The notes below the pieces were generated by a model. It was not told the DNA's origin. It did not search any database and saw nothing but the letters and a program-made list of their open reading frames with translations. Below, piece by piece: positions 4,319-5,818 of a stretch of DNA of 43,136 bases. Both the position numbers and the translations under genes were made by a program. Position 1 is the stretch's first letter, and every line of letters begins with the position of its first letter. Source of the DNA: an uncultured Muribaculaceae bacterium (GTDB lineage Bacteria > Bacillota_I > Bacilli_A > RF39 > UBA660); NCBI GenBank assembly GCA_964369155.1, contig CAYJEI010000002.1, positions 1 through 43,136 on the forward strand, given 5' to 3'.

Positions 4319-5818
4319 ATGATGATTAAATTGATAAAGAAAATAAAAAATGTATTTCTAAAAGATACAATAACTGACAAACAAAGAATAAAAAATTTTA
4401 TTTTAAAACTAGAACACAGCAAAGATTTAGCTGAAATTAATATAGACAATAATATTGAAAAATTTGGTTACGAGTGCACATTATACAAGATATTCATAAG
4501 TAATAGTATAATGTCTAAAATAGATGAATTAAAATACGTTAAGGATATTGTTGAAGAGTTTAATAAAAGAGATAAACAAGTAAATAAGCTTAAAAAAGAT
4601 ATGACAAAAACACACAAAAAGCTTAAGGGTGAAAATAATAAAGATATTATAGCAAAAAATCAATTGATGTTAGATATATGTAATAATAGCTTAAGTGAGT
4701 TAAAAGAATCAATAGAAATATATATAACAGTCTATGAAAAATTTTTAGCAAATAACATCACAGAAGATTCACTAAATAAATTATTAAAATTTATAATGTT
4801 TAGTGATGAACATGAAATAAACAATAAGCATATCAATACATACAAAAATATACCGAATTTGACTAATGAAGAGTTAGAAACATTTGATAAATTTGCTAGT
4901 GAATATAATGAAATTATTAAGCAAAAAGAAATATTAAAAAAGCAAAGTTTAAATGAAACAAATGTAGTAAAAGTTGAATATAAATTAAGTGCCAATAATA
5001 AAAAAGAAAATATTACAACTACAGATAAAAAGTACATTATTAATATTGACGAAGAAGAACAATTAAGGGATTTATACATTGAAAATAAAAGAAGTAAAAT
5101 AATATTTGATAATTTTTTGAATATGAATAAATTTGATGATATAAAAATTTTGTTTCCAAAATTTACCGATAATGACTATTTCTCTACGAAACAAGATATA
5201 ATAAGTCTGCTTGATAATCACATTGAAGAAATTAATAATTTACTTGCACTAGATGACGAGAATGAGTCACTTATCTGTACTGCTGAAATATTTGAGCAAT
5301 ATATGGACGAAGTTTGTGAATATTTTGAAAAGCAAGAATTGGTTGTTGATAGTAATACAAATGAAGTAAATAATAATGTTAATATTTTTTGTTCAGTTTC
5401 TCAAAGTGGAAAAAATTACATTTTAGATGATTTTGATAACATAGAAAAAGAAAAAAGAGAAGATGTGCAAATTCTTTTAGATAAACTCAAAAACAAAATA
5501 TTTACACATAATATTGCAAAACAAAGAAAATTATTTTTAAATAATCAAAATGGGGGAATATTTGAATTAAAAAAATTTGGTATCAGATTAATATATAAAG
5601 ATTTAGGAAATGATAATTTTTATATATTTATGATTTTCAGAAAAAATAATAATAATATTAATGAACATTCTAAAACAATTAATAACAGAATTACACAGTG
5701 TATGCCACACCTTAGAGAAATTCAGCAAAACATAGAAAATGAGGAATATGTTAATTTTGAGTTACAAAGAAGTGCTGAAGTTTTTAAAATTATAAACGAA
5801 AAAAATAATAAAAAATGA
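4319..5818 (+). CDS. Unknown 499-aa N/K/I-rich protein; long helical/coiled-coil N-terminal part and a C-terminal HigB/Gp49/RelE-like toxin-fold domain (inferred)
   Basis: GGGAGG RBS. C-terminal NGGIFELKKFGIRLIYKDLGNDNFYIFMIFRKNNNN resembles GGLRKIRV...RIIYYFLDEKRRFYLLTIYGKNE of HigB-2/Gp49-type toxins. Confidence 0.8.
   Translation: MMIKLIKKIKNVFLKDTITDKQRIKNFILKLEHSKDLAEINIDNNIEKFGYECTLYKIFISNSIMSKIDELKYVKDIVEEFNKRDKQVNKLKKDMTKTHKKLKGENNKDIIAKNQLMLDICNNSLSELKESIEIYITVYEKFLANNITEDSLNKLLKFIMFSDEHEINNKHINTYKNIPNLTNEELETFDKFASEYNEIIKQKEILKKQSLNETNVVKVEYKLSANNKKENITTTDKKYIINIDEEEQLRDLYIENKRSKIIFDNFLNMNKFDDIKILFPKFTDNDYFSTKQDIISLLDNHIEEINNLLALDDENESLICTAEIFEQYMDEVCEYFEKQELVVDSNTNEVNNNVNIFCSVSQSGKNYILDDFDNIEKEKREDVQILLDKLKNKIFTHNIAKQRKLFLNNQNGGIFELKKFGIRLIYKDLGNDNFYIFMIFRKNNNNINEHSKTINNRITQCMPHLREIQQNIENEEYVNFELQRSAEVFKIINEKNNKK

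Follow-up and report, generated by a model that had tools for sequence, protein, structure and literature searches.

A 499-residue protein combining a long helical region with a predicted gp49/HigB-type nuclease domain in a very AT-rich uncultured bacterium

RelE/HigB-type nucleases are normally small proteins, which are held harmless by a separately encoded antitoxin. The protein described here has 499 amino acids and carries a nuclease-like domain of this type in its C-terminal third. It is encoded on contig CAYJEI010000002.1 of an assembly deposited for an uncultured Muribaculaceae bacterium (GCA_964369155.1), from which a stretch of 43,136 nucleotides, hereafter the window, was analysed. 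The closest described counterparts of the domain are the gp49-type toxins HigB of Streptococcus pneumoniae and HigB-TAC of Mycobacterium tuberculosis, monodomain proteins of 120-125 amino acids followed by the gene of a helix-turn-helix (HTH) antitoxin, to which a SecB-like chaperone is added in the toxin-antitoxin-chaperone (TAC) module. Mutagenesis of S. pneumoniae HigB assigned E66, R68, R73, F90 and K92 to the active site, with the strongest effect for R73A (PMC7984235). The equivalent residues of HigB-TAC are E66, R68, R77, F93 and K95, among which K95A abolishes toxicity; their counterparts in E. coli RelE are K54, R61 and R81, and the long helix alpha3 of gp49-like toxins touches, in HigB-TAC, the P-site tRNA (PMC9098466). 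The M. tuberculosis paralogs HigB2 and HigB3, which have lost several active-site residues, are non-toxic (PMC9098466).

Larger chains with a RelE-type fold are on record as well. The survey of multidomain RelE/ParE toxins by Gerdes (2025) lists gp49-HTH fusions, PIN-BECR proteins (PtuZ) and BECR-TM proteins (ToxM), and N-terminal regulatory regions on RelE folds have precedent in multidomain BECR toxins (PMC11980606). The fused gp49-HTH mono-gene modules resemble the 499-residue protein in that a gp49-type toxin is part of one larger chain and a separate antitoxin gene is missing. However, in the 69 gp49-HTH fusions the HTH antitoxin domain is located C-terminal to the toxin, whereas here the extension is N-terminal and all-helical, has no detectable HTH or antitoxin similarity, and only a helix at residues 475-497 follows alpha3. 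Cami1 (CARF-RelE, 8PHB) likewise combines an N-terminal regulatory domain with a C-terminal, ribosome-dependent nuclease of RelE fold in one chain. In contrast to Cami1, with its CARF sensor and its place in type III CRISPR loci, the all-helical N-terminus contains no CARF (Pfam, PADLOC) or other nucleotide-binding domain and the window no CRISPR genes; the structural match to Cami1 is weak (probability 0.6, target template modelling (TM) score 0.18) and covers the RelE part only. The order of helical extension, acidic helical module (module A), gp49-like domain and additional helix alpha4 is not among the architectures in the survey, which left out multidomain proteins without identifiable antitoxin (PMC11980606), and this class is therefore unexplored. 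What is new is the architecture together with the apparent lack of a partner, whereas fold and likely chemistry are familiar.

We propose that the 499-residue protein is a single-chain, multi-domain gp49/HigB-type nuclease of a family not described before, probably an active ribosome-dependent mRNA endonuclease, which its own helical region controls in cis, and we assign a probability of roughly 0.5 to this reading. By analogy with the characterised gp49-type toxins, the nuclease domain would enter the ribosomal A site, cleave the mRNA codon located there and arrest translation. More tentatively, the acidic helical region, i.e. module A and the following linker plus approximately 250 residues in the long form, may keep the basic nuclease inactive or mistargeted, until some signal would release the nuclease from it.

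Fold and active-site positions of the C-terminal domain

AlphaFold modelling with the family alignment resulted in a mean predicted local distance difference test (pLDDT) value of 84.2 and a predicted TM score (pTM) of 0.50 for the full-length protein, and in values of 94.9 and 0.90 for the separately modelled domain. The model shows the C-terminal 150 residues in a predicted complete gp49/HigB fold. The nuclease core consists of beta1 (355-358), alpha1 (367-373), alpha2 (377-391) and the strands 402-405, 414-419, 422-430 and 433-441, i.e. the N-terminal helices and four-stranded antiparallel beta-meander, which together with the similarity to solved toxins place it in the RelE/ParE (BECR) superfamily. 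The core is basic (charge +5, isoelectric point (pI) 9.4). It is followed by a long helix at residues 447-470 in the position of alpha3 after the sheet, as expected for the gp49 type, and by alpha4, which is specific for the family and absent from canonical gp49 toxins.

The comparison of the domain model with the PDB by Foldseek supports this assignment. The top matches are S. pneumoniae HigB (6AF3/6AF4, E 2e-4, probability 1.00, target TM score 0.64-0.70) and then M. tuberculosis HigB1 (7AWK, E 6e-4), and all HigB/HigB1 matches fall between E 2e-4 and 1e-3 with probability 1.00 and TM scores of 0.63-0.70. About 25 chains of RelE, YoeB and YafQ from many organisms come thereafter, and approximately 30 of the top matches in the PDB belong to the RelE superfamily (probability 0.9-1.0, target TM score 0.55-0.70). 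The same top matches were obtained with the full-length model, for which nothing significant was found for the helical part. The gp49-type HigBs (6AF3/6AF4; 7AWK, 7NBU) are thus not only the best structural matches, they also have the same order of beta1-alpha1-alpha2, four-stranded sheet and long alpha3, and they share the active-site constellation and the basic nuclease core with the 499-residue protein. They differ in that their domain makes up the entire protein: gp49-type toxins are monodomain proteins of approximately 100-125 amino acids with an antitoxin gene, whereas here the domain (approximately residues 353-472) forms the C-terminal third of a longer chain, is extended by alpha4, does not reach the Pfam threshold and is encoded without an antitoxin gene beside it.

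At the sequence level, the query alone matched the Pfam family gp49 (PF05973) with 15.7 bits (E 0.016, profile positions 1-84 of 90), i.e. below the gathering threshold of 23.9 bits. The gp49 profile was matched at E<=0.01 by 10 of the 45 members of the protein family described below (best value 5e-05), which is the only Pfam family to recur among them. They thus form a divergent sister group or a sub-branch of gp49 rather than formal members of it.

For the comparison of single residues, HigB sequences of the PDB were retrieved with a typed gp49-like consensus as bait and their residue numbering was verified. The hidden Markov model (HMM) of the family gave a gap-free alignment of 45 residues with S. 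pneumoniae HigB (6.3 bits), and hhalign against a gp49 alignment, which was a shallow template, resulted in the same register (probability 11%, P 0.003). These scores are weak, hence they corroborate the structural result and do not alone prove homology. In this register E416, K418, R423, F440 and K442 correspond to E66, R68, R73, F90 and K92 of S. pneumoniae HigB, and the constellation E-x-[RK]-x4-R...F-x-K is spaced identically in both proteins. The lysine at the position of R68 is also found in E. coli RelE (K54). Conservation in the family reaches 96-100% at four of these positions (E416, K418, R423 and K442), and every long form has kept these residues. Such near-invariance argues for a putative functional active site under purifying selection.

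Hence, the HigB/Gp49/RelE-like C-terminal domain claimed in a preliminary description of the DNA, which had been made from the sequence alone, is supported by the fold search, by the sub-threshold gp49 matches throughout the family and by the retained residues at catalytic positions, including F440 in the query itself. The checks proposed there point in the same direction: the profile search found the sub-threshold gp49 match over 84 of 90 profile positions, and structure prediction gave a RelE-superfamily fold instead of another fold or a characterised non-toxin family. Of the domain limits of approximately 375-470, the start was placed too late, with beta1 already at 355-358; the domain extends through alpha3 (447-470), and a further helix (475-497) follows. 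The template named there, Vibrio cholerae HigB-2 (5JAA), was not a good choice. It shares the RelE-superfamily fold, the toxin-first order and a long C-terminal helix, but matches poorly in structure (probability 0.15-0.20, TM score about 0.3) and is classed in PF_RelE (PF06296) and not in gp49 (PMC11980606).

The helical region, long and short forms and a candidate partner

About 350 residues precede the domain, and the long helical N-terminus noted earlier reappears in the full-length AlphaFold model as helices at 51-103, 108-144, 183-225, 287-311 and 316-344, mostly with pLDDT values >90. Within the N-terminal extension disorder is predicted for residues 1-39 and 224-252. Its conserved sub-region includes N146, L152, L155, F158, I159, H171, T174, I178, P179, L181, F192, Y196 and I200, which are invariant in the four closest long forms. 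No meaningful structural neighbour of the extension was found in the PDB or BFVD, the entire protein contains no HTH family detectable with Pfam or NCBIfam, and its sequence shows no signal peptide or hydrophobic N-terminus. Module A, for which there is no Pfam family, contains the motif LFPKF (278-282), and a hairpin of helices spans residues 287-344. Its charge is -12 in the query (pI 4.1), compared to a family mean of -6.6. The linker has a net charge of -3 (family mean -2.7), and the pLDDT falls to about 65 at residues 341-350. The acidic module A (-12) and the basic nuclease core (+5) display the charge polarity known from antitoxin/toxin pairs, which is consistent across the family.

When 1.84 billion cluster representatives were searched exhaustively with HMMER, 44 relatives came to light, i.e. 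45 members including the query. None of the 44 relatives is named in any source or matches a Pfam family over its whole length, and the query as a whole matches no family in Pfam, NCBIfam, PADLOC or PHROGs. In a word-indexed homolog search, the full protein recovered the query itself only, probably because low-complexity words swamped the candidates; the C-terminal profile recovered four proteins, all of them unnamed. Most members have a common core of module A, acidic linker, C-terminal domain and the further helix, and a few short or partial proteins miss module A wholly or partly. The consensus of the C-terminal domain reads NxIFA..sG..y...DLK.I.eEYY...L..L..G....N..K.RK..NN.kL.G..ElK.f..RL.Yk.L..d..YV....KK.dN......i..R......Y...K. 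About 16 of the 44 relatives, P0002-P0012 among them, are long forms of approximately 420-580 amino acids, and the closest ones (P0002-P0004) align over nearly the full length with 31-37% identity. The short forms of approximately 250-270 amino acids match only residues ~255-499 of the query (20-25% identity). Side by side with the query, short forms such as P0033 and P0040 (~260 amino acids) have homologous module A, nuclease and alpha4, but are without the ~250-residue N-terminal extension and possess an overlapping downstream gene that is absent from the query. Two members, P0013 (L014:999-2135) and P0043, carry a C-terminal extension of ~170 amino acids with a helicase-associated domain (HA, PF03457).

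The contigs carrying family members all have 24-29% GC. A scan of the genome collection found only two short contigs, labelled as uncultured Muribaculaceae metagenome-assembled genomes. These contigs, CAYJHI010000101.1 and CAYJEP010000053.1 (L001/L006 and L002/L007), carry the closest relatives of the query; given their GC content of 24-27%, they are fragments that probably stem from a bacterium of very low GC content and were mis-binned. A metagenome scan with short-form patterns found two AUXO01 contigs, the scan with long-form patterns nothing. Two scans of viral contigs found no family members, and in BFVD just small stand-alone gp49-like proteins were seen. The family is thus small, unnamed and rare, and its carriers are all very AT-rich, uncultured bacteria.

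The genomic context of the short forms includes a small gene. P0033 and P0040 are located directly after rpoB-rpoC, and a gene for 82-91 amino acids, overlapping the stop codon, is next. In the case of P0016, ftsW of a cell-division cluster precedes and a homologous gene for 90 amino acids follows. The three small partners are mutually 53-54% identical and occur in two different genomic contexts; their consensus is LKNAEGKRLLEKTRLEYSKEIIN...LL..LE.T..dF..YLSGe....I..YDQAL. No match to the partner family was found in Pfam, NCBIfam and PDB sequences. Judged from its sequence and position, the protein of 82-91 amino acids is a candidate antitoxin or partner of the short forms. The partner is conserved across loci, therefore short form and partner behave as a portable toxin-first two-gene module, with the gene order typical of higBA. 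At the P0016 locus the family gene is split into an open reading frame (ORF) of 59 amino acids (L018:6396-6575, module A) and one of 176 amino acids (6636-7166, nuclease domain), which is either a pseudogene or an assembly error. P0013 is found between recO and glyS, beside an insertion sequence (IS) element with an IS240-type transposase.

The long forms have approximately 250 extra N-terminal residues and no partner, and there is no neighbour common to the sampled ones. P0022 is followed at a distance of 40 nt by a truncated XRE-type HTH ORF (L021:1658-1819, …LRNQKNMTQLELATLMNVTDKAVSK*), after which an ORF of 51 amino acids with a membrane helix comes. The truncated ORF may be a remnant of the canonical gp49-HTH arrangement. 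Together with the overlapping partner of the short forms, it points to a toxin-antitoxin-like ancestry of the family. In our preferred reading of a cis-regulated nuclease, the helical region would replace the small partner encoded downstream of the ~260-residue relatives, and the gene would be a partner-less derivative of the toxin-first two-gene module, lodged in a housekeeping operon and probably co-transcribed with frr and fmt.

A conserved synteny with these two genes was considered and rejected. Neither flank of P0002 is frr or fmt, P0003 has no frr upstream, P0005 is followed by a gene for 208 amino acids, P0048 comes after teichoic-acid synthesis genes, and the locus of P0022 differs as described above. 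The preliminary description had asked whether the gene always sits between frr and fmt; it does not, since this arrangement is absent even in the closest relative. The frr-X-fmt order is specific to the source genome of the 499-residue protein, and the position therefore provides no functional link to translation factors. No defence-island neighbours were seen at any relative's locus examined.

The gene, its neighbours and the window

The gene starts with ATG, ends with TGA and is a real gene, as judged from the strong Shine-Dalgarno sequence and the 44 relatives (Table 1); an antisense ORF inside it (4732..5079) was dismissed as just a mechanical ORF of AT-rich sequence. Coordinates, length and the Pfam assignments of the neighbours agree with the ORF between frr and fmt as it had been described. 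All three genes are on the same strand, separated by 42 nt (frr to the 499-residue ORF) and 18 nt (to fmt). Hence, there is no space for a small partner gene, and fmt occupies the slot usual for a HigA-type antitoxin. Moreover, neither a homolog of the short-form partner (tblastn) nor a paralog of the nuclease domain was found elsewhere in the window. The earlier statement that no antitoxin partner stands beside the gene therefore holds, and the adjacent co-oriented antitoxin gene of a type II module such as higBA is missing here. No terminator-like site was found between the three genes. The promoter scan gave 48 sites compared to 54 expected, i.e. chance level, and is uninformative because the DNA is AT-rich. 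Tight same-strand spacing and lack of a terminator make it plausible that frr, the 499-residue gene and fmt are co-transcribed.

Table 1. Coordinates of the described features. Positions refer to the window unless a locus (L) is given; residue numbers refer to the 499-residue protein.
Feature	Coordinates	Strand	Basis or remark
frr, ribosome recycling factor (context only)	3746..4276	+	PF01765, 3e-55
Shine-Dalgarno sequence AGGGAGG	4303..4309	+	9 nt 5' of ATG; read from sequence; graded strong
Complete ORF, 499 amino acids + TGA	4319..5818	+	44 relatives by exhaustive HMMER search
N-terminal extension, residues 1-254, long forms only	4319..5080	+	AlphaFold model; only long-form relatives align
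Conserved sub-region, residues 146-200	4754..4918	+	consensus NNITxxKLNKLLKFIESDCGxxLSxKHINTYxNIPDLTEEEKExF
Module A, residues 255-336, acidic helical	5081..5326	+	alignment and AlphaFold model
Acidic linker, residues 337-354, between module A and nuclease	5327..5380	+	lower model confidence
Predicted gp49/HigB-type RelE-superfamily (BECR-fold) nuclease core, residues 355-446	5381..5656	+	model, Foldseek, sub-threshold gp49 match
E416 codon	5564..5566	+	E66 of both HigBs; kept in 44 of 45 members
K418 codon	5570..5572	+	R68 of both HigBs, K54 of E. coli RelE; 43 K and 2 R among 45
R423 codon	5585..5587	+	R73 of S. pneumoniae HigB, R77 of HigB-TAC, R61 of RelE; 45 of 45
F440-R441-K442 codons	5636..5644	+	F440 = F90; K442 = K92, also K95 of HigB-TAC; K442 in 44 of 45
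Long helix alpha3, residues 447-472	5657..5734	+	modelled helix 447-470; feature of gp49-type toxins
R457 codon in alpha3	5687..5689	+	43 R and 2 K among 45
Extra helix alpha4, residues 473-499	5735..5815	+	modelled helix 475-497; family-wide in alignment
fmt, methionyl-tRNA formyltransferase (context only)	5837..6769	+	PF00551 (Formyl_trans_N) 1e-41 and PF02911 (Formyl_trans_C) 4e-13
Candidate partner genes, 82-91 amino acids	L003:1655-1903, L008:8789-9064, L018:7178-7450		immediately downstream of short forms, overlapping or abutting stop

The gene had also been described as more AT-rich than its neighbours and rich in N, K, I and E, which is correct. Its GC content of 0.214 is the lowest of the 39 ORFs analysed in the window (mean 0.271, standard deviation 0.034), level with that of 7397-8422, and the N+K+I+E content of 49% is the highest among them. 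However, the conclusion drawn earlier of an acquired gene, and with it a recent horizontal acquisition, is not supported. The GC content at third codon positions (GC3) is 0.164, which is ordinary or even high for the window, and being host-like it indicates that the low GC content reflects the amino-acid composition and not a foreign origin. TGA serves as stop codon in four ORFs of the window, hence the standard bacterial code applies.

The window is all core chromosome, without any prophage, defence, mobile-element or CRISPR genes. Nearly all long ORFs of the window (1-43136) are on the + strand, the GC skew is positive throughout, and tRNA and Rfam scans of the 43 kb were empty. In addition to frr and fmt, the core genes encode HU, a CDP-alcohol phosphatidyltransferase, an M23 peptidase, hrcA-grpE-dnaK-dnaJ, PepF, SufC/SufBD, RecD2, cmk, an Xer-type recombinase, PPDK, XseA and ProRS. 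The Xer-type tyrosine recombinase (28816-29703, Phage_integrase 1e-48) adjoins a DUF2130 protein (29769-31034, 2e-88) and is, because of its core-gene neighbours, most likely a chromosomal XerC/D rather than a prophage integrase. The ORF at 7397-8422 encodes 341 amino acids with faint TPR matches only, has a GC content of 0.215 and lies in the same operon-like gene string as the 499-residue gene. Furthermore, the window contains four paralogs of 421-539 amino acids with an N-terminal transmembrane helix and without a Pfam family (672-2288, 10489-12108, 19948-21213 and 40448-41947); in three of them the helix is followed by a common S[YF]AYF motif, and the first two are 68% identical. A homolog with 26-31% identity to these paralogs is encoded at L021:2252-3571, just downstream of the long form P0022, and this suggests a relationship between the lineages in which long forms occur.

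Alternative explanations and meaning of the finding

Several points weigh against a cis-regulated, active nuclease. The sequence homology to gp49 is weak, with a sub-threshold score of the query and an hhalign probability of only 11% against a shallow template, and searches of the PDB sequences with the domain or short-form profiles returned chance matches only and no toxin. Position 440, equivalent to F90, is variable in the family (R 11, F 7, K 6, Y 4). Moreover, some gp49-type proteins such as M. tuberculosis HigB2/HigB3 are non-toxic despite the fold (PMC9098466). The case for cis-inhibition is circumstantial, drawn from charge and architecture only; the inter-domain geometry is uncertain, as indicated by the pTM of the full model. 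A fused copy of the short-form partner was looked for in the N-terminal extension and rejected, as BLAST gave no signal and hhalign a probability of 0.2%. Finally, the core-operon setting, the host-like GC3 and the lack of mobile or defence neighbours fit a domesticated role at least as well. In such a role the protein would be a housekeeping factor, namely a regulated translation-quality-control nuclease for A-site mRNA cleavage on stalled or collided ribosomes, with the helical region as ribosome or collision sensor and constitutive expression from the frr-X-fmt operon. The tight same-strand spacing without terminator and the core-chromosome window are in line with it, and relatives occur among housekeeping genes too (after rpoC, after ftsW, between recO and glyS). 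The catalytic residues are strongly constrained although there is no antitoxin, and viral contigs gave no matches. Nevertheless, the position differs in every sampled lineage, and not even the closest relative has the frr/fmt linkage; the distribution of the family is patchy and very sparse (45 clusters in 1.8 billion representatives). Moreover, the short forms take their partner along from one context to another, one copy of the family gene is split and one lies beside an IS element, a behaviour resembling that of toxin-antitoxin systems and not that of a core factor. We therefore regard a domesticated housekeeping factor as unlikely. Its most specific version is somewhat less probable still, i.e. 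an operon-embedded translation-surveillance nuclease and not a selfish toxin, expressed together with ribosome recycling factor and formyltransferase. In this version a small-genome, very AT-rich host would use a RelE-type nuclease for A-site mRNA, joined to the long helical region as sensor of ribosomes or collisions, in the role that SMR-domain nucleases (SmrB, MutS2) have in other bacteria.

The variable position 440, the lysine in place of R68 and the non-toxic M. tuberculosis paralogs (PMC9098466) could also be taken as signs of a catalytically dead or non-toxic RelE-fold protein, kept as a scaffold or to bind RNA or ribosomes without cleaving anything, for which the absence of an antitoxin would pose no problem. 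However, the non-toxic paralogs lack several active-site residues, whereas four are 96-100% conserved here; E. coli RelE itself has lysine (K54) at the R68 position, and the basic charge of the nuclease core would suit the binding of RNA. A dead fold thus appears as doubtful as a housekeeping factor. Slightly less weight is given to a single-gene anti-phage (abortive-infection) sensor-effector, a specialised version of the cis-regulated nuclease by analogy with fused toxin-antitoxin defence proteins such as CapRel and with CARF-RelE (Cami1), in which the variable N-terminal extension would sense a phage protein and release the nuclease. The combination of a variable N-terminus with a conserved effector domain is the pattern of sensor-effector defence, abortive infection is a function of the gp49-type HigB toxins found in TAC modules (PMC11980606), and Cami1 is among the structural neighbours, but PADLOC gave no match and neither the window nor any relative's locus has defence-island neighbours. 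A secreted polymorphic toxin (LXG/type VII secretion system-like or similar) with helical trafficking N-terminus, C-terminal RNase and downstream immunity gene is disfavoured and very improbable. It would account for the long helical N-terminus in front of a C-terminal nuclease, and the small gene downstream of the short forms could encode an immunity protein. However, LXG, WXG, RHS or HINT matches occur in 0 of 45 members, signal peptide and hydrophobic N-terminus are missing, and there is no immunity gene at this locus because fmt follows directly. Furthermore, the C-terminus is conserved and the N-terminus variable, the reverse of polymorphic toxins, and classical RelE domains are almost never used in these, with a single instance reported (PMC3482391). 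Hardly any room is left for a ParE-like protein poisoning DNA gyrase instead of cutting mRNA. ParE and RelE share the fold (PMC11980606), and ParE2 and ParE1 are among the weaker structural matches (probability 0.4-0.7, TM score below 0.5), but the best matches are all mRNases, and ParE toxins are without the RNase catalytic residues (PMC11980606), which are present and conserved here.

If the helical region indeed controls the nuclease in cis, this would be a new way to silence a ribosome-dependent mRNase, and the protein would add to the few single-chain toxin-regulator proteins such as the gp49-HTH fusions, Cami1 and CapRel-type proteins. The impact is moderate, since there is nothing unfamiliar about the fold and the likely chemistry, and since the family is a rare one found in uncultured low-GC bacteria only. 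Because its short forms have a partner and its long forms have none, the family provides a natural comparison of control in trans and in cis.

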